Assembly: GCA_965248635.1 (NCBI GenBank)
Contig: OZ252114.1
Location: 3,103,309-3,167,308, forward strand
DNA from: Acidobacteriota bacterium
GTDB taxonomy: Bacteria > Acidobacteriota > UBA6911 > RPQK01 > CBDAPI01
Direction of reading: 5' to 3'
DNA: 64,000 nt
Within the stretch, counting starts at the first letter, position 1. Each line of letters begins with the position of its first letter. Of the stretch, positions 2,941 to 59,315 are shown one piece after another. The notes beneath the pieces are model-generated. The model was not told the origin of the DNA. It saw only the letters and a list, made by a program, of their open reading frames with translations, and made no database searches. The translations under genes were made by a program, and so were the position numbers.

Positions 2941-3915
2941 CTAAGCAGCTTGCTGGGTTTCAGGGGTCGGCGGGTCGGCTTGAACGGTGGTTAGAATCGC
3001 CTCCGAGTGCGGTTGTGCACGGCTTTGGGGTCTGGGTGAGAAAGTGTAGTTCCATTTTCCGAGGAAGTTGCTTCTAGCGAAGGAAAGCTGCTCCAGTTGC
3101 TGGTCTGAAACCTTGATTCCTTTCTGGTAAACTCGCCGGTCGCGGTAGGCCTCCACGCGTAGCCCGGTCAGGGTGCGTGTTTTGCGGGCGAAGTCGACGA
3201 GGGTCTGAAAACTTTTGAGCGGCTCTCCGGCCCAGTTCTTGGTGATTTCGCTGAAGAGTCGGTGTTCGATGGGGTTCCACTTGCTGGCGCCCGGGGGATA
3301 GTGGGCCACGGTAATGGTGAGTCCATAGGGGTCGGCGAGCCTCTCCTGGAGAAGCTTCTTCCAGGCGCGAGGGGCGGCTCCGTTGCTTCCGCCACAGTCG
3401 GCGAGAACCAGCAGGCGTTGGGACCGGCGGTAGTGGTCTTGACCGTGCTGACGCCACCAGGTGAGGATGCTGTTGACGGCAAAGGCTGGCGTATCGGCGG
3501 ACTGCCCCACCACCAGCACGCCAAAGTTGCGGCCCACATCGTAGATCCCATAGGGGCAGGCCAAGCCCACAGCCTGGGAACGAAAGTCATGGTCTTGGAC
3601 CTGCGGGGCGTCGCGACACCAGATCTTACCGGGGTTCTTGAACAGACCGATGAGCTCTTTTTTCTTACTATCGACGCAGATGACCGGGTCGCCGCTCTGG
3701 GCGAACTGCTGGCGCAATCGTTTGATGATCGCGAACTGGGCGTCCCGATAAGGGGAGTTTCCCGCCGACAGGCATTTTCGGTTACTCTTTAACGAATAGC
3801 CCAGCTTTTTGAGCAAGCGACGCACAGCCGTGGCCGAGATCTTCAGCTGCAGACTTTCGGCCAGGCAGCGGGCGATCTTTTCGGCCGTTTGATGAGTCCA
3901 TCTCCTGGCCGACAT
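2941..3915 (-). CDS. ISAzo13-family transposase, C-terminal DDE part (Rhodopirellula-type DDE transposase domain)
   Basis: …HYPPGASKWNPIEHRLFS… and DDE-type core. It is in the -1 frame relative to the upstream ORF. Confidence 0.75.
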   Translation of the reverse strand: MSARRWTHQTAEKIARCLAESLQLKISATAVRRLLKKLGYSLKSNRKCLSAGNSPYRDAQFAIIKRLRQQFAQSGDPVICVDSKKKELIGLFKNPGKIWCRDAPQVQDHDFRSQAVGLACPYGIYDVGRNFGVLVVGQSADTPAFAVNSILTWWRQHGQDHYRRSQRLLVLADCGGSNGAAPRAWKKLLQERLADPYGLTITVAHYPPGASKWNPIEHRLFSEITKNWAGEPLKSFQTLVDFARKTRTLTGLRVEAYRDRRVYQKGIKVSDQQLEQLSFARSNFLGKWNYTFSPRPQSRAQPHSEAILTTVQADPPTPETQQAA

Positions 3916-6197: not shown

Positions 6198-6840
6198 CTA
6201 CTCACCCCGGCCGTCGCTGGACGCCACGTTCGACCACACGAAAGTTCGCCCTTCCGCGAACCGTTTCAAGTCGAAGCGTTCGATATGTTGAGGGACTTCA
6301 TTTTCGACAATGAATTCTGCCATGGATCGACCAACCCAGGGTGATAGCGAAAAACCCCCTCCACTGAACCCGAGCGCGTAGAAAAGGCCGTCGAGCGTAG
6401 CCGCTCGATCCAGAATCGGAACTCCGTCGGGGGTATAGTCGTAGACGCAGGCGTAGGTCCGGTGAACAAAACCACTGGCCATCGGTGGCAGCGTGATCGC
6501 CAAACGGCGATGCATGTCCGCGAGGGACTCGTAATGGGCGGTCTGCTTGTAATGATCGGGGTCCTCCGCGACAAAGTCCTTCACGCCGTGCAGACGATCA
6601 CCTTCCCGCCAACCGACGAACATCTGTGCATCCCCTTCCGGTCGAAGGTAAAGCAACGACCGCGCGTCGGTCACGATTCGCGACAGGTGAAATTCGGCTA
6701 CAGATGGGGTCTGAAAAAATGCCATTTCTGCCCGATGGGGATGGACCGGCACGTCGACGCCAAGCTGTGCGAGTTGCGTTGTGCCCCACACCGAAGTTGC
6801 TACCAGAACCTGCGGCGCGTCGAATCGCCTGTCCTTTGCG
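6198..6840 (-). pseudogene. FAD-dependent oxidoreductase (DAO/glycine-oxidase-like), C-terminal fragment only
   Basis: Homology covers only the C-terminal substrate-binding/FAD-closing half (…VLVATSVWGTTQLAQLG…GFSGGGFSLSPWVG…). The N-terminal GxGxxG FAD-binding region is absent. Upstream is low-complexity DNA with a near-direct repeat ccccggaaaaaaatcag / cccccggaaaaaatcaa. Confidence 0.55.
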
Positions 6841-7058
6841 AAAAAATCCTCCCCGGAAAAAAATCAGCCCCCGGAAAAAATCAAAACAGGGGATTGCTTT
6901 TCATATATACGGCGCCGGCCGGTTTCTTTTTTTCTTTTTGGGTGCGTATAGGGTGTGGAAAGTGCGCTTAAACGACCTTCCTGACCGCACCTGACACCCC
7001 TGCAAACCCGCAAAGTACCGTCAATAATGGGTTCTGTGTCTAACAAACGAAGAACCAG

Positions 7059-8926: not shown

Positions 8927-10300
8927 ATGATGAAGCTGCGACACATTCTTGGACTTCTGGCTGCATCGCTTTTGCCCTTGACCGCGCTCCTGATGGCTTA
9001 CTCCGGTGGGCCCTTGCCCCGGCTAACCGGCGGATTCGAAGAGGAGACCTGCCTGCAGTGTCACAAGGACTTCTTATTGAACGAAGGCCGGACCCTGGGC
9101 GGCGTTTTCTATTTGCGTGGAGTCCCCGGCCGATACCAGCCGGGTGAAACCTACTTGATTACTGTTGTCATCGGTCAGCCGGGACAGCAGCGCTGGGGGT
9201 TTGAACTCTCCGCCCGCTTTACAGGCAGCAGGCAACAGGCCGGGCAACTGGTCCCCGCCGACGACCATTCCCAGGTTCAGACTGCGGCTCGGGTTCAGTA
9301 TGCCTCCCACACTGAGGCGGGGTCCAGAAAGGGTCTGCAGCATGGCCCGGTCGAGTTCACCGTGAACTGGATCGCACCCGATCAGGCCCTGGGCGATGTC
9401 CTCTTCAACGCCGCGGGGAATGCAGCCAATGGAGACGACAATACAACCGATGACTATGTCTACACGGCCAGTGGTTATTCGATACCTGCTGACCAGGTGG
9501 AGATCCTCCCGGTCGTCCAGCGACAGGAGCCCTCATCCGAGCCTCGCCAGACCCGAAGGCTCAATGAGGACCCGCGCCTCGTCCACGTGGGCGCTCCCCT
9601 TAACCTGAACCGGGGAAACGTCGAAATTCTGATTCAGCACCGCTTCCTGGGGACGATCCTCGATGATGGGTCTGTGGACGCCGGAAACGCTTTCGGACTT
9701 GATTTTGGAGCCAATATCAAGCTGGGGATGACCTACGCGTTGACCGACCGGGTCAGCGTCGGAGTCTCGCGTGAACGTTTCGACCAGCGGGTCGGATTCA
9801 GCAGCACTGTGGAGCTCCTGACCGAGAAGGAATCTCCCTTCAAGATCGCCGTTCGCGGCGGAATGGAGGGCGAAGGCAATTTCGGGAGACATTACACCGG
9901 ATTTATCGAAGTTCCGGCGCAATGGGATTACAAGGCTTTCCGTCTCCATGCAACCCCGATCGCTGTCTTCAATTCACGCTCCGATCTGGAGGCTGAGTTT
10001 CGTCCCGGGGCCATCAACGGAGACAAAAACCACACCTTCTCACTGGGTGTGGGGACGGACATCGCCTTCAATCGACGTCTTTCCCTGGTCGGGGAGTACA
10101 TTCCACGCCTGGCCGGGTTCGGCGGCTTTGGCAACGATCGGGCCTCCCTGGCCGGCGGCGTAAAGATCAGAACGAGGCGACACGTCTTTCAGATAATGAT
10201 CACCAACAATCGCTTCATGAGCCCAAGCCGTTACGCGGTCAACGCCACTACCACCGACTACGCCTTCGGTTTCAACATCTACCGGAGGTTTGGGAGGTAG
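8927..10300 (+). CDS. secreted monoheme c-type cytochrome (single CxxCH) fused to a predicted C-terminal beta-barrel; Cyc2-like outer-membrane cytochrome-porin candidate
   Basis: Signal peptide, then CLQCH heme-binding motif at residues about 42-46. The C-terminal ~260 aa show alternating hydrophobic beta-strand patterns and end in an aromatic residue (…NIYRRFGR), consistent with an outer-membrane barrel. Size is 457 aa. Confidence 0.5.
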   Translation: MMKLRHILGLLAASLLPLTALLMAYSGGPLPRLTGGFEEETCLQCHKDFLLNEGRTLGGVFYLRGVPGRYQPGETYLITVVIGQPGQQRWGFELSARFTGSRQQAGQLVPADDHSQVQTAARVQYASHTEAGSRKGLQHGPVEFTVNWIAPDQALGDVLFNAAGNAANGDDNTTDDYVYTASGYSIPADQVEILPVVQRQEPSSEPRQTRRLNEDPRLVHVGAPLNLNRGNVEILIQHRFLGTILDDGSVDAGNAFGLDFGANIKLGMTYALTDRVSVGVSRERFDQRVGFSSTVELLTEKESPFKIAVRGGMEGEGNFGRHYTGFIEVPAQWDYKAFRLHATPIAVFNSRSDLEAEFRPGAINGDKNHTFSLGVGTDIAFNRRLSLVGEYIPRLAGFGGFGNDRASLAGGVKIRTRRHVFQIMITNNRFMSPSRYAVNATTTDYAFGFNIYRRFGR

Positions 10301-10302
10301 GT

Positions 10303-10550
10303 TCCAATGTTTCAAGGTTCCAACGTTCCAAGGTTCCAACGTTCCAAGGTTCCAACGTGCACCTCTTTTCCGCGTTACCGGCAAGGATGGAACCCCTCTG
10401 GGGTGCAGGAACGGTCAGGGGATGACCCTCCGTAGTTCGAACCGTGGGTCGGCGGACTGTCTTCCATTTGCGGTACAGATGCAAGTGTTGCTCTTGGCCT
10501 TCCGGCCTTGGAACTTTGGAACTCTGGAACGTTGGAACCTTGTTGCTAGT
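10303..10550. repeat. tandem GGTTCCAA octamer array (about 7 copies) and an inverted TTGGAAC array (about 4 copies) forming a long imperfect palindrome around a ~130-nt spacer
   Basis: Directly visible: ggttccaatgtttcaaggttccaacgttccaaggttccaacgttccaaggttccaacg … ccttggaactttggaactctggaacgttggaacctt. Confidence 0.85.
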
Positions 10551-10714
10551 GCAGCCCGCCATAAGTTCTGACCCAGCTTCAGGCGCCCCTCCCCGCCACT
10601 GGCGTTGTTGCGCTCGCTCGCCATATAGCTGGATATGACTCGCTCCCGACGCCTAGCCAGCGACGACGATTGACGCGCTGACCCTGGATCAGAACTTATG
10701 GCGAGATGCACTAG
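10545..10714. repeat. MITE-like element with 26-bp imperfect terminal inverted repeats
   Basis: ctagtgcagcccgccataagttctga (about 10545-10570) and tcagaacttatggcgagatgcactag (about 10689-10714) are reverse complements with 2 mismatches. The ~118-bp core is non-coding. Confidence 0.4.
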
Positions 10715-10718
10715 TGCA

Positions 10719-11426
10719 CTAGATCCCGTGGACCGGCTCCGCCCGCTGCTGGGTTTGAAGCACACCCTTTTCGAGATCATGCCTGGTCCCGGCAAAGGCG
10801 GCCGCCTTCGGGTCGTGGGTCACCATGACGATGGTCTTCCCAAACTCCTGGTTCAGGGCAGCCAGAATATCCAGCACGGCCCTGGCAGAGTCGGCATCCA
10901 GATCTCCGGTGGGCTCATCTGCGAGAATCAGCCGGGGATCGGTCACAATCGCTCGTGCGATGGCCACGCGCTGCTCCTCCCCTCCCGAGAGTTGCCGGGG
11001 ATAGTGGCTGGCGCGCTCGGTGAGGTCCACCAACCGCAAGGCCGTCTCCACGTGCAGCCGCCGTTCCGACTTGGAAAGCGAGGTCAGCAACAGGGGCAAC
11101 TCCACGTTCTCAAGGGCAGTGAGCACCGGAATCAGATTGAAGTGCTGAAAGACGAAGCCGATGTTCCGGTTCCTCCAGGTGGCCAGCTGATCTTCGGTCA
11201 GGCCCACCAGTTCGGTCCCCAGCACCTGAAGGCTGCCCGAGGTGGGGCGATCGATGCCGGCCATCAGGTTGAGAAGCGTCGTTTTTCCAGAACCCGATGG
11301 ACCCATCAGGCTCACGAACTCGCCTTCTCGGATCTCCAGGTTGATGTTCTCCAGGGCGACGATGTGCTGAGCTCCCTTGGTGAAGACTTTCCCCAGCTCT
11401 CTGACTTGGACCAGCGCACTGCTCAT
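10719..11426 (-). CDS. ABC transporter ATP-binding protein (MacB/LolD-type)
   Basis: Walker [10 protein letters not shown], signature [14 protein letters not shown], Walker [12 protein letters not shown]. Confidence 0.85.
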
Positions 11427-11459
11427 TTTGACAATCCTCCGCTTGCCTGACGGCAAGAG

Positions 11460-20371: not shown

Positions 20372-20456
20372 CGTTCCACGTTCCACGAGGGTCCTGCCCA
20401 TTCTCGGGATCCGACCCCTAATCCACAATCCTCCAAACGTGGGTGGAACGTGAAAC
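20372..20456. repeat. inverted GTTCCACG-type repeat pair (hairpin) between convergent genes
   Basis: gcgttccacgttccacg … cgtgggtggaacgtgaaacc around a ~48-nt loop. Confidence 0.8.
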
Positions 20457-43589: not shown

Positions 43590-44141
43590 GTGTCAAAGAA
43601 CGATCTTGGTACGACAGAGGAGAAGCTGTTGCAGCAGGCTGCAGCCGGAACCAGAGAAGCTTACGGTCGGATCTTTAAGCTTCATCGAGGCAGAGCCTAC
43701 GGATTGGCCTTTCACTACACGAAGAACAAAGAAGACGCCATGGATGTCGTCCAGGACGCTTTCATGCGGGCTTATCTGAACCTGAACAAGTTCGACTTCC
43801 GACGCGAGTTTCGTCCCTGGCTCCTATCGATCGTGCGCAATCTGGCCATCGACCTGCTGCGCAAGCGAAAACGCACCCGCACAGATGAATTACCTGCTGT
43901 TCTGCCTGAGCGCAGCAACCGGACTCATGCCGATCAGAAGCTGCTCAAGAGGGAGATCTGGGATCTGATAAATGAGCTCTCAAAAGACCAGAGAGAGATT
44001 ATTTTCTTAAAAGACTATCAGGGCCACAGCTACGCCGAAATCGCCGAAATTGTGGACATTCCACTGGGTACCGTGATGTCCCGACTTCACCATGCACGCA
44101 AGAAACTGGCGGCGCTGCTCAAGGAGAGCAGGAATGTCTGA
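43590..44141 (+). CDS. RNA polymerase sigma-70 factor, ECF subfamily
   Basis: Sigma-70 regions 2 and 4. GTG start. Confidence 0.85.
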   Translation: MSKNDLGTTEEKLLQQAAAGTREAYGRIFKLHRGRAYGLAFHYTKNKEDAMDVVQDAFMRAYLNLNKFDFRREFRPWLLSIVRNLAIDLLRKRKRTRTDELPAVLPERSNRTHADQKLLKREIWDLINELSKDQREIIFLKDYQGHSYAEIAEIVDIPLGTVMSRLHHARKKLAALLKESRNV

Positions 44142-44568
44142 GAAAGAGATCGAGGTACTTCTCTCCGGCTATCTTGACGGTGAACTCACACAACAGGAGA
44201 GACAGAAAGTAGGTGTGTATCTGGAGCGCGATGAGCGTTACCGTGAGATCCTGGCGGAACTCGAACGGGTGAAAACTGAAACCGAGAGCCTCAACTATGA
44301 GGAGCCCAGTTCCGGAGACTGGAAGATCATGGAGAAGAGCCTTGTGGAGGACGTCAGTCGAGGTCTGGGATGGGTCATCCTGTCGGTCTGGGCAGTCGTT
44401 CTGACGTCTTACGGACTGTGGGAGCTGGCCACGGCCCCTGATGAGCCGTTGCTAGGGAAACTCCTGGTTTTCGGGGTCTTTCTGGGAGTTGCGCTTCTCT
44501 TTTTCTCGGTTCTCGCTCAGCGAGTGCGCGAGAGTCGCACGGACAAATACAAGGGAGTCTACAAATGA
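44134..44568 (+). CDS. anti-sigma factor (membrane-anchored)
   Basis: N-terminal …LSGYLDGELTQQERQKV… anti-sigma helix plus a C-terminal TM segment. The ATG lies 8 nt inside the sigma gene. Confidence 0.6.
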   Translation: MSEKEIEVLLSGYLDGELTQQERQKVGVYLERDERYREILAELERVKTETESLNYEEPSSGDWKIMEKSLVEDVSRGLGWVILSVWAVVLTSYGLWELATAPDEPLLGKLLVFGVFLGVALLFFSVLAQRVRESRTDKYKGVYK

Positions 44569-44880
44569 TCGTTAGCACTACGGACGATATTGCCGGTCGG
44601 CGAATCGTCAAGACAATCGGCGTCGTTCGCGGCAATGCAGTGCGATCGAGACACCTGGGTCAAGACATCCTGGCGGTTCTGCGCAACGTCGTCGGGGGTG
44701 AGATCCATGAGTATGTGAAGCTGGCGGCGGAAGCTCGCGAGCAGGCCATGGACCGAATGGTGGATGAGGCTGAAGAACTAGGAGCCAACGGCATCGTCGG
44801 CATTCGCTTTGGAACCGCCATGATCATGTCCGGCGCGGCCGAACTTCCTCGTCTATGGAACCGCCGTGATCGTCGAGTAG
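44565..44880 (+). CDS. ybjQ: YbjQ/UPF0145 family protein; annotated frame carries a 1-nt insertion near its 3' end
   Basis: MIVSTTDDIAGRRIVKTIGVVRGNAV… matches YbjQ. After …SGAAE the +1 frame gives LVYGTAVIVE*, the conserved YbjQ C-terminus (compare E. coli …SGTAVK). The in-frame reading instead extends to 44969 through a repeat element. Confidence 0.7.
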
Positions 44881-44953
44881 ACCGAGGGCCAATTCCAGAT
44901 TCCACTACAATTCTCCATTACGTCCAGCGTGAAACGTGGAACGTGGAACCCAT

Positions 44954-45487
44954 TCAGTCCAGAAACTGAAAGCGTGCCACGGGCGATCGAGAGACCACTT
45001 TTTCCCCTGTTTCGATTCCATTCATGCTTCCGCCCACATGGCATTTGTGGAATTCGATGAGCGACCCCTCAGCAATTCTGTCCGGAGTGACTCGACCTGC
45101 GATCAGACCATGCAAGGTGGCGTAGAACTTCGCCTCCTGGACGACCTCTGCCTGGTCGCCGTCACTTGACTTGAACTCGATCACGGGAGTGATGTGGTAA
45201 ATCCGCTGGCTCGCAGCCTCCCCATCATCCTCTCCGGAAGGGTGCAAGAATCGCCAGACCTTGAAGCGACTGGGCTCGCAGGTGTAGATCACCTTGGAAA
45301 GGTATTCTCGTCCCCGATAGGGCCGAGACTGTTCTGCGGCAACGATGAGAATTCTCTTCTCACTACCCCGCACATCCCGGGACACGGAGGCTCTGCGAAC
45401 TCTCCGGCGCCTGGCCAACACGGCGGCGAATCCAACCACGGCTCCGCTGATACCGGGAAAAAGAAACTTCTTCCACTTCAGTCCCAT
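44954..45487 (-). CDS. hypothetical protein with N-terminal transmembrane helix
   Basis: ORF only. Confidence 0.35.
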   Translation of the reverse strand: MGLKWKKFLFPGISGAVVGFAAVLARRRRVRRASVSRDVRGSEKRILIVAAEQSRPYRGREYLSKVIYTCEPSRFKVWRFLHPSGEDDGEAASQRIYHITPVIEFKSSDGDQAEVVQEAKFYATLHGLIAGRVTPDRIAEGSLIEFHKCHVGGSMNGIETGEKVVSRSPVARFQFLD

Positions 45488-46140: not shown

Positions 46141-46148
46141 ATAAAGAT

Positions 46149-46262
46149 CCGGCAACGACCTACGTTCCCACATAGTCTCCCATGCAGTATCATCGGCGCT
46201 GGAGGACTTAACTTCTGTGTTCGGGATGGGAACAGGTGTGGCTCCTCCGCTAAAGTCACCGG
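46149..46262 (-). rRNA. rrf: 5S ribosomal RNA
   Basis: The reverse complement reads CCGGTGACTTTAGCGGAGGAGCCACACCTGTTCCCATCCCGAACACAGAAGTTAAG…GGGAACGTAGGTCGTTGCCGG, a canonical 5S. Confidence 0.85.
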
Positions 46263-46326
46263 AAACTGTTAAAGATCGATGTCGTCGGGCAAACACACCA
46301 GTGTTTTGTGCGACAAAATATTCTAG

Positions 46327-49289
<2,963 letters not shown>

Positions 49290-49455: not shown

Positions 49456-49650
49456 CTCCAAACAAACAACTTCGCCGGGGGCCCAGCCTGGCTCCGCAGG
49501 CCCTCGAAAACACCGGCTGCACCACACCTCTCAGCATGACTGGGAGTGCGGGGTACTGGGAGTGCGGGGTCGGCCAGGAGAAGGGGTGGTGGACGCGACA
49601 AGTCAGGGGTTGGGGGAGGGCGCGCCCACCGTTCTTGAACAAACAAAGAA

Positions 49651-49680: not shown

Positions 49681-49924
49681 ATAAAACGGGATATTTTTGG
49701 GCAAAGCCCCCTAGAACACCTGGCGGCCTGCTCCGGCCATACTCTCATTCTCCCAATTCGGAGAAAAGTCACTTTGGGCGACTTCAAGAAACGTTCCAGA
49801 GTTCCAAGGGCCCAGGTTGACGGCCTTCACCAGGGCGGCAACGAGCAAGGAGCCCGGCATCAGGAAACTCTGCACGGAATTCGACGTGGAACGCGAACCT
49901 CGGAGGACGGAACTCCTTGAAAGG

Positions 49925-50824: not shown

Positions 50825-50839
50825 TCGTTGATTCCTGGT

Positions 50840-50990
50840 TGCTGGTTACTAGTTACAGGTTGAAGGTTACAGGTTGAAGGTTACAGGTTGAAGGTTACAG
50901 GTTGAAGGTTACAGGTTGAAGGTTACAGGTTAAAGGTAGAAGATTTTCGCTAACCGGTAACCAGTAACCCGGAACCAGTAACGGCACGAG
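50840..50990. repeat. tandem array of about 6.5 copies of a 14-bp unit (AGGTTACAGGTTGA), followed by a short inverted degenerate array (CCGGTAACCAGTAAC x2)
   Basis: Directly visible. It begins about 15 nt upstream of the mutM ATG, so it occupies the mutM leader/promoter region. Confidence 0.85.
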
Positions 50991-56992: not shown

Positions 56993-57150
56993 CATTTCAC
57001 GTTCCAAGTTCCATGTTCCACGTTTCACCTTGGAAGTACCGGTTGCTGGGAAGAAAGAACCTGGTTGATCAGCTTCCGGATTCGTCTGCATGGGAAGTGG
57101 AGTTGACAAGACGTGGAACTTGGAACGCGTAGCCGCCGCAGGGCGGCTAC
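56993..57150. repeat. inverted GTTCCA-type repeat pair plus a perfect 9-bp-stem hairpin (gtagccgcc-gcag-ggcggctac) at the rel 3' end
   Basis: cacgttccaagttccatgttccacgtttcac … gacgtggaacttggaacgcgta form the repeat pair. The GC hairpin overlaps the rel stop codon. Confidence 0.75.
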
Positions 57151-59315
57151 GCCCCCACTTCCCTGGCCCGGTTGCCCGATCGATCCACATCGCGTACACC
57201 CTCTATGCCCTTGATCACATTGACGACCCGGTCCAGGTGCGCGGTGTCGGTGACCTCAACCGTCAAATCAAAGAGCCCGAATCGCCCCTCCACGGTATCG
57301 GCTGTTGCGTTGACGATGTTGGTTTTGATGTTGGAGATGGCGTTCGAGATATCGGCCAGCATCCCTCTCCGGTCTTCCGTGTAGATTCTCAGGGGAACGG
57401 CGTAGCGGTCTTCTTCGGTATCGGAAGCCCACTCCAGCTCGATCGTTCTTTCCGGATTCAGGAGAAGGTTTTCCACGTTGCGGCAGGTTGGGGAGTGAAC
57501 CGAGATTCCCCGCCCCACGGTAATGTAGCCAATAATCTCTTCACCCCGGATCGGGTTGCAGCACTTGGCTCGCGACACCATCAGATCTGACTCCCCCTGC
57601 ACCAGGATTCCGTCATCCTGGCGGCCCAGCACTCTTCGAACCACCTTCCCCAGTCTCGATTCTTCGCTTTCCGGTCCCCTGGTCGTTCGCTCCGGGGCCA
57701 GCTTCTTGATGACCACGCCTGCAGGCAGCTTCCCGAACCCGAGGGCGGCATACAGGTCCTCCGTCTCTTTAAAGTTCCAGGTTGGAAGCAACTCCTTCAG
57801 TTTCTTGCGATATCGCTTGGGACTGATCTCATACTTCCGGGCTTCTTTCTCATAGAGTTTTCTCCCCAGAACTTCCGCGTGCTCCCTCTGCCTCTGGGTG
57901 AGCCAGCGCCGAATCGCGTTACGGGCCTTCGAGGTCTTGACAAACTCCAGCCAACCCCTTCTGGGGCGGCTCTGATTCGAGGTCAGGATCTCGACCCGGT
58001 CGCCGCTCTTCAGACGTGACTTGAGGGGCAGGAGTCTACCGTTGATCTTGGCACCCAGGCAGCGGTGACCGATCTCCGTGTGAATCGAGTAGGCAAAATC
58101 CACCGGCGTTGAACCCTTTGACAGGGTGATCACTTCTCCCTTGGGAGTGAAGATGTACACCTCTTTTGGGTACAGATCGATTTTGAGGTTGCTCAGAAAC
58201 TGATGGGGATCTTTGACTTCCTTCTGCCACTCGAGCACCCGCCTCAACCAGCCGAACTGTGTCTCGTCCGCCTGAACCTGGAGCCCTTCTTTGTACTTCC
58301 AGTGAGAGGCGATCCCCTCCTCTGCGACCCGGTGCATCTGGCGCGTACGGATCTGGACTTCGAAAGGCTGGCCACTCTGGCTCAACACGGTCGTATGCAG
58401 GGACTGGTACATATTGGGACGGGGAATGGCAATGTAATCCTTGATCCTGTCCGGAACCGGATTCCACATGTTATTGATGACCCCGAGTGCGGTGTAGCAG
58501 TCCTTGATCGACGGCAGAATCAATCGGAAGGCGTAGAAGTCGTACACCTGATCCAGTTCGATTCGCTGTCGCTTCATCTTTGCAGAGATGCTGTAGGGAC
58601 GCTTGATCCGGCTCTGGACCATCGCTTCCATTTCCTGACCCTGGAAGGTCGATTCAATGCGCTTGATCACTCCGCGGATGAAGCCGTCGCTGTGGGCCAG
58701 CTTCTTGCTCACCTGATCCTCGAGCCGCTTGAAGGATGCCGGATCCAGGTAGCTAAAGGCGAGATCCTCCAGCTCACCGCGAATCCTGGCGATTCCCAAC
58801 CGATGAGCGATGGGCGCGTAAATCTCGATGGTCTCGCGGGCAATCGATTTCTGCTTTTCCCCGGACATGGGACGCAGAGTCCGCATATTGTGCAGTCGGT
58901 CCGCGAGCTTCACGAGGATGACGCGGATGTCGTCCACCATCGCCAGGAGAAGCTTGCGAAAGTTCTCCACCTGCTTCTCCTTCTTCGAGGAGAACTGGAT
59001 CTGACTCAGCTTGGTCACGCCATCGACCAGGCTGGCGATGTCCTCTCCAAAGAGTTCCCGAATCCGCTCCACAGTGGTCAGGGTGTCTTCGACTACATCG
59101 TGAAGCAGGCCCACGGAGACGCACACAACATCCAGTTGCATATCGGCCAGGATGGCGGCAACCTCAACTGGATGAGAGAAATAGGGCTCCCCGGATTTCC
59201 GAACCTGGTCCTGGTGGGCTTTTTCTGAAAAGCGGTACGCGTCCCGCAGGGGATCCAGGTCGGCCCTCGGCGCGTAGGCTCCCACTTTAGCGCAAAGTTC
59301 TTCAAGACTCAGCAT
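57147..59315 (-). CDS. rel: bifunctional (p)ppGpp synthetase/hydrolase
   Basis: HD hydrolase domain, RelA/SpoT synthetase domain, and TGS and ACT domains. Size 722 aa. Confidence 0.9.
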   Translation of the reverse strand: MLSLEELCAKVGAYAPRADLDPLRDAYRFSEKAHQDQVRKSGEPYFSHPVEVAAILADMQLDVVCVSVGLLHDVVEDTLTTVERIRELFGEDIASLVDGVTKLSQIQFSSKKEKQVENFRKLLLAMVDDIRVILVKLADRLHNMRTLRPMSGEKQKSIARETIEIYAPIAHRLGIARIRGELEDLAFSYLDPASFKRLEDQVSKKLAHSDGFIRGVIKRIESTFQGQEMEAMVQSRIKRPYSISAKMKRQRIELDQVYDFYAFRLILPSIKDCYTALGVINNMWNPVPDRIKDYIAIPRPNMYQSLHTTVLSQSGQPFEVQIRTRQMHRVAEEGIASHWKYKEGLQVQADETQFGWLRRVLEWQKEVKDPHQFLSNLKIDLYPKEVYIFTPKGEVITLSKGSTPVDFAYSIHTEIGHRCLGAKINGRLLPLKSRLKSGDRVEILTSNQSRPRRGWLEFVKTSKARNAIRRWLTQRQREHAEVLGRKLYEKEARKYEISPKRYRKKLKELLPTWNFKETEDLYAALGFGKLPAGVVIKKLAPERTTRGPESEESRLGKVVRRVLGRQDDGILVQGESDLMVSRAKCCNPIRGEEIIGYITVGRGISVHSPTCRNVENLLLNPERTIELEWASDTEEDRYAVPLRIYTEDRRGMLADISNAISNIKTNIVNATADTVEGRFGLFDLTVEVTDTAHLDRVVNVIKGIEGVRDVDRSGNRAREVGA

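Follow-up and report, generated by a model that had tools for sequence, protein, structure and literature searches.

What is the long palindrome that lies between two convergent genes near position 10,300, and does it act on the transcripts of its neighbours? The first-pass annotation had described about seven tandem octamers facing about four inverted copies, and had taken them for a genome-specific, REP/BIME-like family of bidirectional terminators or mRNA stabilisers that always sits at gene 3' ends. We analysed this structure, named element A, both within the window (i.e., the whole 64-kb stretch of DNA) and against arrays of the same unit in other genomes. The locus is laid out as follows.

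8927-10300, + strand: gene for a DUF5777 haem/beta-barrel protein, whose stop codon borders the gap on the left
10299-10358, + strand: 5' arm of element A, 7.2 tandem octamers in which GGTTCCAA alternates with CGTTCCAA, giving a true period of 16
10359-10507: spacer of element A, 149 nt of unique sequence
10508-10542, + strand: 3' arm of element A, 4.4 inverted octamers (TTGGAACN), whose pairing partner is 10313-10349
10719-11456, - strand: gene for an ABC ATPase, part of a MacB/HlyD-type operon, whose stop codon borders the gap on the right

As first described, the gap is 418 bp long (10301-10718) and separates the 3' ends of convergent genes. Tandem Repeats Finder resolved 10299-10358 into 3.8 copies of the 16-mer AGGTTCCAACGTTCCA, equivalent to 7.2 copies of an 8-mer, and 10508-10542 into 4.4 copies of TTGGAACT, in agreement with the copy numbers that had been read by eye; the two arrays are 149 nt apart and not about 130 nt. 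The best pairing of the arms joins 10313-10349 to 10506-10542 (37 nt, 92% complementary, 156 nt between the arms), which fits the imperfect stem of 35-40 bp that had been proposed. The TAG stop of the DUF5777 cytochrome gene shares bases with the first unit of the 5' arm, and a small hairpin, GGCC-ttcc-GGCC (10496-10507), closes the spacer and abuts the 3' arm. Folding of the 261-nt region predicted a long outer stem on both strands, with -120.5 kcal/mol for the + strand (z -6.1) and -106.8 kcal/mol for the - strand (z -5.7). A screen of the whole 64-kb window for inverted repeats of at least 22 nt lying within 400 nt of each other returned only the element A pair and one neighbouring pair. 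Furthermore, the pattern (GTTCCA N1-2)x2 GTTCCA matches six times in the window, while 100 shuffles gave an expectation of 0.00. Element A is real, lies well outside chance, and is one member of a dispersed family. For annotation, the arrays account for spurious read-through ORFs such as 10290-10571 (+) and 10272-10562 (-). A metagenome scan with the DUF5777 cytochrome found no relative above 47% amino-acid identity, and the searches with the element A locus yielded no close relative.

The remainder of the gap holds an unrelated structure, a 169-nt rod hairpin at 10546-10714 with nearly perfect self-complementarity (-109.3 kcal/mol, z -10.4), which begins 3 nt past the 3' arm of element A and ends 4 nt from the stop codon of the ABC ATPase gene. 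Its arms read CTAGTGCA...TGCACTAG and are followed by two copies of TGCACTAG (10707-10722). We found no second copy of this hairpin in the window or in any of the 445 fetched loci, and Rfam gave no match to it; a MITE and a structured RNA are both possible identities.

We found five further elements in the window that are built like element A, with arms that abut gene ends in each case. Three of them had been named in the first-pass annotation and are real (elements B, C and D); E and F are additional.

57001-57126, element B: GTTCCAA GTTCCAT GTTCCAC GTTTCAC, an 86-nt spacer, then GTGGAACTTGGAAC; fold z -4.1; the relA/spoT stop (57147, - strand) lies on one side and the thiolase start (56984, - strand) on the other
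20372-20456, element C: (CGTTCCA)x2 followed, after about 50 nt of spacer, by GTGGGTGGAACGTGAAAC; it takes up the 97-nt gap between convergent genes for a MerR-type HTH protein (stop 20364) and queF (stop 20462)
44891-44950, element D: 5' arm ATTCCAGATTCCAC, which is weak, and 3' arm GTGAAACGTGGAACGTGGAAC, between a convergent ybjQ-like gene (true stop 44868) and an ORF at 44954-45487 (- strand)
50835-50982, element E: a different unit, (GGTTACAGGTTGAA)x6 facing (TAACCNG)x4.6 across 13 nt, between the mutM start (50824, - strand) and a tRNA-Gln gene (51053, + strand)
49792-49918, element F: degenerate, CGTTCCAGAGTTCCAAGG ... CGTGGAACGCGAACCTCGGAGGACGGAAC; 7 nt separate its end from the stop codon of mutM

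The GTTCCA arrays of the window hold 2-7 copies of units of 7 or 8 nt, and all pairs have the polarity 5'-GTTCCA...TGGAAC-3'. Element D folds barely better than shuffled sequence. The spacers of these elements have no similarity to each other, to the rest of the window or to the 445 fetched loci, and neither an Rfam match nor a promoter-like site was found in them. These results uphold the idea that intergenic repeats able to form hairpins are dispersed as a family. A bias towards gene 3' ends is present, with convergent genes on either side of three of the four clear GTTCCA-type elements (A-D); the word "always" is too strong because element B lies at the thiolase start and element E in a divergent region, both abutting start codons.

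Several features adjoin these elements. A GC hairpin, GTAGCCGCC-gcag-GGCGGCTAC, at 57130-57151 stands next to element B. Element E lies 10 nt upstream of the mutM start codon at one end and 70 nt upstream of tRNA-Gln at the other, in what is a divergent promoter region. Beside element D, the ybjQ-like gene (44565-44969) carries an apparent frameshift near 44840: a different frame encodes the expected C-terminus, YGTAVIVE (stop 44868), while the called ORF runs through element D to 44969. This frameshift is either a sequencing error or the mark of a pseudogene. Directly upstream of ybjQ and element D is a gene for an ECF sigma factor followed by a probable anti-sigma gene, the two overlapping by about 50 nt (43590-44568).

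To place the family more broadly, we used a survey of one genome per species in which three tandem GTTCCA cores were sought and in which at least 120 loci were found; the motif is thus not confined to the window. By a tally of record titles, the matches listed include about 27 loci from Acidobacteriota, about 34 from Bacteroidota (including 2 from Rhodothermales), 9 from Planctomycetota, 6 from Verrucomicrobiota and roughly a dozen from deltaproteobacterial lineages, with few from Proteobacteria proper or Firmicutes. GTTCCAN arrays and pairs are also present in Desulfobacterota among these matches. Because such arrays and pairs occur in many phyla, the element A family is not genome-specific, contrary to what had been supposed. 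Full-text literature searches for the repeat sequences returned only unrelated matches, apparently the sequences of expression constructs.

The arrays and pairs of the window and of 120 genome loci among the matches listed are regular in composition. Among these loci, tandem repeats are dominated by a period of 7 (179 non-redundant arrays), followed by periods of 8 (67), 10 (16) and 6 (9). About half of the listed period-7 arrays carry units other than GTTCCA, which makes this a general heptamer phenomenon, and the arrays often adjoin arrays of other heptamers and short GC-rich tetraloop hairpins. Copy number among the loci listed runs from 2 up to 18. For arrays of at least three units in this set, an inverted partner was found within 400 nt in 36 of 154 cases and a direct partner in 12. 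Single arrays outnumber pairs by 118 to 23 in the same loci. The pairs that do occur are strongly oriented, with 25 of the listed genome pairs in the polarity 5'-GTTCCA...TGGAAC-3' and 2 reversed. Their arms lie 5-274 nt apart, with some spacers of only 5-20 nt, and the predicted stems are 14-53 bp long, several of them perfect. The linker bases between cores agree across the two arms in 33 of 42 comparisons against a null of 46%, a value that 0 of 2000 permutations reached, in a comparison where some loci were counted more than once.

The position of the arrays relative to genes is similarly biased. Gene calls in the survey came from a crude self-trained ORF caller, in which stops are reliable and starts approximate. 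With these crude calls, the 21 pairs that could be classified among the loci listed comprise 6 between convergent genes, 15 between co-directional genes and none between divergent genes, while intergenic length is 15% convergent, 62% co-directional and 23% divergent. This absence from divergent gaps supports the bias, though not the exclusiveness, of the 3'-end placement first described. Single arrays in the listed loci lie between divergent genes in 10 of 86 cases, again against 23% of intergenic length. The nearer gene is the one on the 5' side of the GTTCCA strand in 63 of these 86 single arrays (p = 2e-5), with a median distance of 25 nt on that side and 100 nt on the opposite one. This closeness holds among the loci listed for gene ends of both kinds, at 35:10 where the array faces a stop and 28:13 where it faces a start.

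To what class do these elements belong? Element A consists of two short tandem arrays in inverted orientation and belongs to the class of intergenic heptameric simple-sequence repeats; we place its family there because the layout fits the published description of repeats in Xanthomonas and Nostoc (PMC4692102). In that work, Rehm et al. (2015) described arrays of GGGAATC in Xanthomonas and of GGGGAYT in Nostoc (PMC4692102). The Xanthomonas arrays number about 185 per genome with 2-26 units each, are 89-93% intergenic, and include 70-75 arrays in inverted pairs of convergent orientation with stem-loop potential; their mean distance is 28 nt to the ORF on the 5' side and 160 nt to the following one, whatever the ORF direction, with 16% between convergent and 7-8% between divergent ORFs (PMC4692102). 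Their lengths differ between two species while their positions are mostly kept, and the authors found no function and no regulatory role for them (PMC4692102). As cited in that paper, heptameric repeats are over-represented among the simple-sequence repeats of many bacterial genomes, and heptamer slippage has been linked to the footprint of DNA polymerase (Mrazek 2007, cited in PMC4692102).

The GTTCCA arrays share this layout. Their units, near 7 nt in length, follow one another head to tail and keep a GTTCCA core, while other positions and the copy number vary; arrays on opposite strands lie near each other in one orientation (25:2 among the loci listed); and, by the crude gene calls for the listed loci, they are intergenic, close to the 5'-side ORF and rare between divergent ORFs. 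They differ from the Xanthomonas and Nostoc repeats in several respects: the GTTCCAN(N) unit is unable to form a G-quadruplex, element A has an 8-nt unit with a 16-nt super-period, the host is probably acidobacterial, and the GTTCCA unit recurs in several phyla. We know of no established function for heptameric repeats. A second group for comparison is formed by the cyanobacterial STRR heptamers and the TAACTGA direct repeats of Beggiatoaceae, Cyanobacteria and Bacteroidetes (MacGregor 2015, PMC4679880). Like the GTTCCA arrays, these are intergenic tandem heptamers with one preferred sequence, a patchy occurrence over distant phyla, and a strand and position preference relative to genes. Unlike the GTTCCA arrays, TAACTGA repeats are nearly all direct, lie just upstream of start codons and are thought to act in translation, with a single inverted set reported in the 'Maribeggiatoa' genome (PMC4679880). 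Heptamers near promoters have also been described in Nostoc (bioRxiv 10.1101/2022.06.06.494920).

The classification as a genome-specific REP/BIME family, by comparison, is wrong. What defines a REP is an imperfect palindrome of fixed form, 20-40 nt long and with a conserved head of the GTAG type, that occurs in near-identical copies and is linked to a RAYT transposase. For the REP/BIME/REPIN repeats of Enterobacteria and Pseudomonas, the proposed roles are 3'-end protection and transcript insulation. The elements described here resemble these repeats in being extragenic, in often standing after stops or between convergent genes, and in forming inverted pairs that could fold in mRNA; they differ in that their arms are tandem arrays of variable length with unrelated loops. 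With units of 7 or 8 nt that vary in copy number, no conserved GTAG head and no fixed palindrome of 20-40 nt, they are not REP/BIME in the strict sense, and no RAYT (Y1 HUH transposase) was found in a Pfam scan of about 50 window genes or as a recurrent gene in the 120 loci listed. The elements are neither RAYT-type REPs nor MITEs, nor are they canonical intrinsic terminators.

The best account of these observations, to which we assign a probability of roughly 45%, is that the elements are heptameric simple-sequence repeat pairs that were born by slippage, persist at gene ends, and act there as transcript stem-loops. Slipped-strand mispairing (replication slippage) would create the arrays and change their length. 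We favour this origin because copy number is variable, periods of 7 and 8 nt are mixed, and an array is present in one genome and absent from another at one orthologous site. At that site, the only one compared, a 1.9-kb stretch of the window with spoU and rarA is 80.8% identical in nucleotide sequence to an Acidobacteriota MAG chromosome (L079), which carries a (GTGGAAC)x3 array just upstream of a conserved gene where the window has no array. This identity also makes an acidobacterial origin of the window probable. Once formed, arrays would survive where they are least harmful, i.e., beside gene ends and away from divergent promoter regions. A transcript leaving either gene that flanks a pair of facing arrays would carry (GUUCCAN)n first and then (NUGGAAC)m, and these could fold into a stem of 14-53 bp starting within 0-7 nt of the stop codon. 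Such a stem may serve as a REP-like structure at the transcript end, be it a block to 3' exonucleases, an RNase III site, or a point of termination or insulation between transcription units. A transcript stem-loop at gene ends is the most likely role that we can propose from the predicted folds and positions. A terminator or mRNA-stabiliser role is a plausible prediction for these elements, and the guess of the first-pass annotation on this point was reasonable.

Several observations count against this role. A U-tract follows neither arm of element A, and T-tracts or A-tracts flanking the arrays were not found among the loci listed in general. With no GC stem and U-tract at either arm, a canonical bidirectional terminator is excluded for element A. 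Stems of 20-50 bp are substrates of RNase III, so that a transcript could be destabilised and not protected. Stem stability cannot explain the polarity of the pairs because the duplex is identical in either order, and since arrays in the loci listed are mostly single (118 compared with 23 pairs), a hairpin cannot be the whole story. The placement of element E in a divergent region, and of B and E at start codons, further counts against a role at gene ends. A test of G-U against A-C asymmetry for selection at the RNA level drew on a small, redundant sample.

The main rival to the stem-loop reading is that the arrays are neutral by-products of slippage that accumulate in non-essential intergenic DNA and have no function, their position bias reflecting purifying selection in promoters and coding sequence. 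We consider this unlikely overall and still the strongest of the alternatives. The presence of the L079 array and its absence from the window are what neutral slippage would produce, as are a copy number that spans 2 to 18 in the loci listed and the many different units within the same genomes. The control unit GTCTCA points the same way, being arrayed in viral contigs at 56 loci, well above a roughly estimated chance level; GTTCCA yielded at least 120 loci there. A census of other units in the loci picked by two control patterns gave GTTCCA no special status there; one control unit, ACCTTG, overlaps the octamer on the other strand. That no regulatory role was found in the Xanthomonas study (PMC4692102) is likewise in line with functionless debris. 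What neutral slippage fails to predict is the 25:2 polarity of the listed pairs, the greater closeness of arrays to the 5'-side gene, and the matching of arms at linker positions.

A second alternative is binding by a sequence-specific protein, to which the arrays would offer sites as double-stranded DNA, with one module bound per 7-8-bp unit and oppositely oriented complexes nucleated by the two arms at gene boundaries. Candidate binders would be ParB, acting on parS half-sites, or a ribbon-helix-helix protein acting on heptad arrays. Heptad-binding repressors with polarity preferences are known (e.g., the omega protein of pSM19035), and iteron-like TGGAACNN boxes occur in intergenic control regions of phage contigs, both of which speak for protein binding. 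For ParB in particular, GTTCCAC, GTTTCAC and GTTCCAT are enriched at ParB ChIP-seq peaks in Pseudomonas aeruginosa and make up one parS arm (Kawalek et al. 2018, bioRxiv 10.1101/280743). These same heptamers recur exactly as units in elements B, C and D, and the polarity 5'-GTTCCAC...GTGGAAC-3' is that of parS. Beyond these likenesses, a parS consists of one 16-bp palindrome, uninterrupted by a spacer and near the origin, and the half-parS sites of Pseudomonas are isolated and mostly inside genes, whereas the window units are tandem with arms far apart. Most units end in A or G and not in C or T, including the GTTCCAA of element A. The window has no full parS: the 16-bp palindrome TGTTNCACGTGNAACA has only two matches there, with 3 mismatches each, which is the level of chance, and a scan of about 50 window genes found no gene for a ParB or RHH protein. 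With arms 5-274 nt apart, a single dimer cannot span a pair; five or six elements per 64 kb would titrate ParB; and unrelated heptamers are arrayed in the same build within the same genomes. We therefore regard protein binding as improbable. Less probable again is its boldest form, in which GTTCCAN arrays are a cross-phylum element read by a conserved protein, for example through loading or retention of ParB or a ParB-like protein on half-parS arrays. If that were true, ParB-type binding would mark gene boundaries, and the heptamer layout common to Xanthomonas, Nostoc and the GTTCCA phyla would reflect shared machinery and not G-quadruplex formation.

A third alternative is that the elements are non-autonomous mobile elements, analogous to MITEs or REPINs, with the arrays as terminal inverted repeats and a transposase encoded elsewhere in the genome. 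Inverted ends of fixed polarity, many copies per genome, arms matched at linkers, the presence of transposase genes in the window and the sharing of about 80 nt of flanking sequence by several copies in one deltaproteobacterial MAG would all suit such an origin. The spacers in the window, by contrast, have nothing in common, arm length and period differ among copies, and reading the flanks of element A and of loci L074, L065 and L009 by eye revealed no apparent target-site duplication. Protein clustering near the arrays of the 120 loci listed returned only generic families and no recurrent transposase or mobility gene. Moreover, the IS91-type and ISAzo13-type elements of the window have no GTTCCA arrays at their ends. 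A mobile origin thus seems a long shot. Weaker still is the idea, raised in the first-pass annotation, that the 149-nt spacer of element A is a small RNA gene; the arrays would then be its processing or insulating stem. In its favour, internal structure is predicted for the spacer, and the stem around it looks like one processed by RNase III, but we found no sigma-70-like promoter in the spacer, no Rfam match to it even at an E-value of 10 and no homologue in the window, in the 445 loci or in the spacers of the other elements, and some family members have spacers as short as 5-20 nt, which together make this reading very improbable.

Further candidates were rejected. The idea that the arrays represent -35 elements (GGAAC) of ECF sigma factors was dropped, as they lie too near start codons, also occur after stops and lack a consistent -10. 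They do not correspond to a known structured RNA, as no Rfam family overlaps any window element at the gathering threshold or at an E-value of 10. Finally, IS91 targets the site GTTC/CTTG, and a coincidence with such targets was set aside because neither end of the IS91-like element at 854-2221 carries an array. The genes concerned lie at the start of the window, where an IS91-family Y2 (HUH) transposase gene (854-2221, + strand) stands beside an ISAzo13-type DDE transposase gene (2941-3915, - strand).

The GTTCCA family bears on a wider question about heptamer layout. For the best-studied pair-forming repeats, those of Xanthomonas, G-quadruplex formation is the sole hypothesis offered (PMC4692102). 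The informative difference is that the GTTCCA unit is unable to form the G-quadruplex invoked there. A Xanthomonas-like layout in several phyla, built from a unit with no such capacity, argues that the layout comes from something more general, for example slippage combined with selection on transcripts, or a binding factor. The GTTCCA family thus provides a second, independent repeat family with which this question can be tested.

Arrays in other genomes also take other forms. In deltaproteobacterial MAGs, a conserved stretch of about 80 nt (…ATGAGCC-loop-GGC…AAATTATGAAAAGTTCC…CTCTTAAC) precedes the TGGAAC arrays (L011 4250-4520, L104 6230-6500, L112 5020-5290 and L042 5700-5980), and some copies have an RBS-like sequence about 20 nt downstream. 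The repeat seems in these genomes to be part of a longer conserved element, unlike the window elements. In a Prevotellaceae MAG, compound arrays flank a radical-SAM gene (L019 3880-4070 and 5180-5320); they are made of three heptamers, TTCTAGN, GTTCCAC and TTAACAC, with their complements, and each has a short GC-rich hairpin beside it. Among viral contigs, a group of loci (L124 7100-7340, L128, L129, L131, L137, L141 and L171) has three TGGAACNG octamers facing three GTTCCACNG in a polarity opposite to that of the bacterial pairs, around a (CG)n palindrome and close to further GGAAC boxes. The octamers of L124, which alone of the group was inspected, lie between two phage genes and have an iteron- or operator-like look.

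Two other parts of the window also carry short repeats. The 23S and 5S rRNA genes lie at 46147-49289 (- strand) and 49539-49570 and appear to be unlinked, as there is no 16S gene in about 15 kb upstream; their upstream leader contains a perfect 16-nt tandem duplication (ACTGGGAGTGCGGGGT x2). At 6840-6883 we found a tandem repeat of 17-18 nt (AAAAAATCACCCCCCGGA, 2.3-2.6 copies), located where a truncated FAD-oxidoreductase-like ORF (6198-6791, - strand) has its start, or slightly past it.
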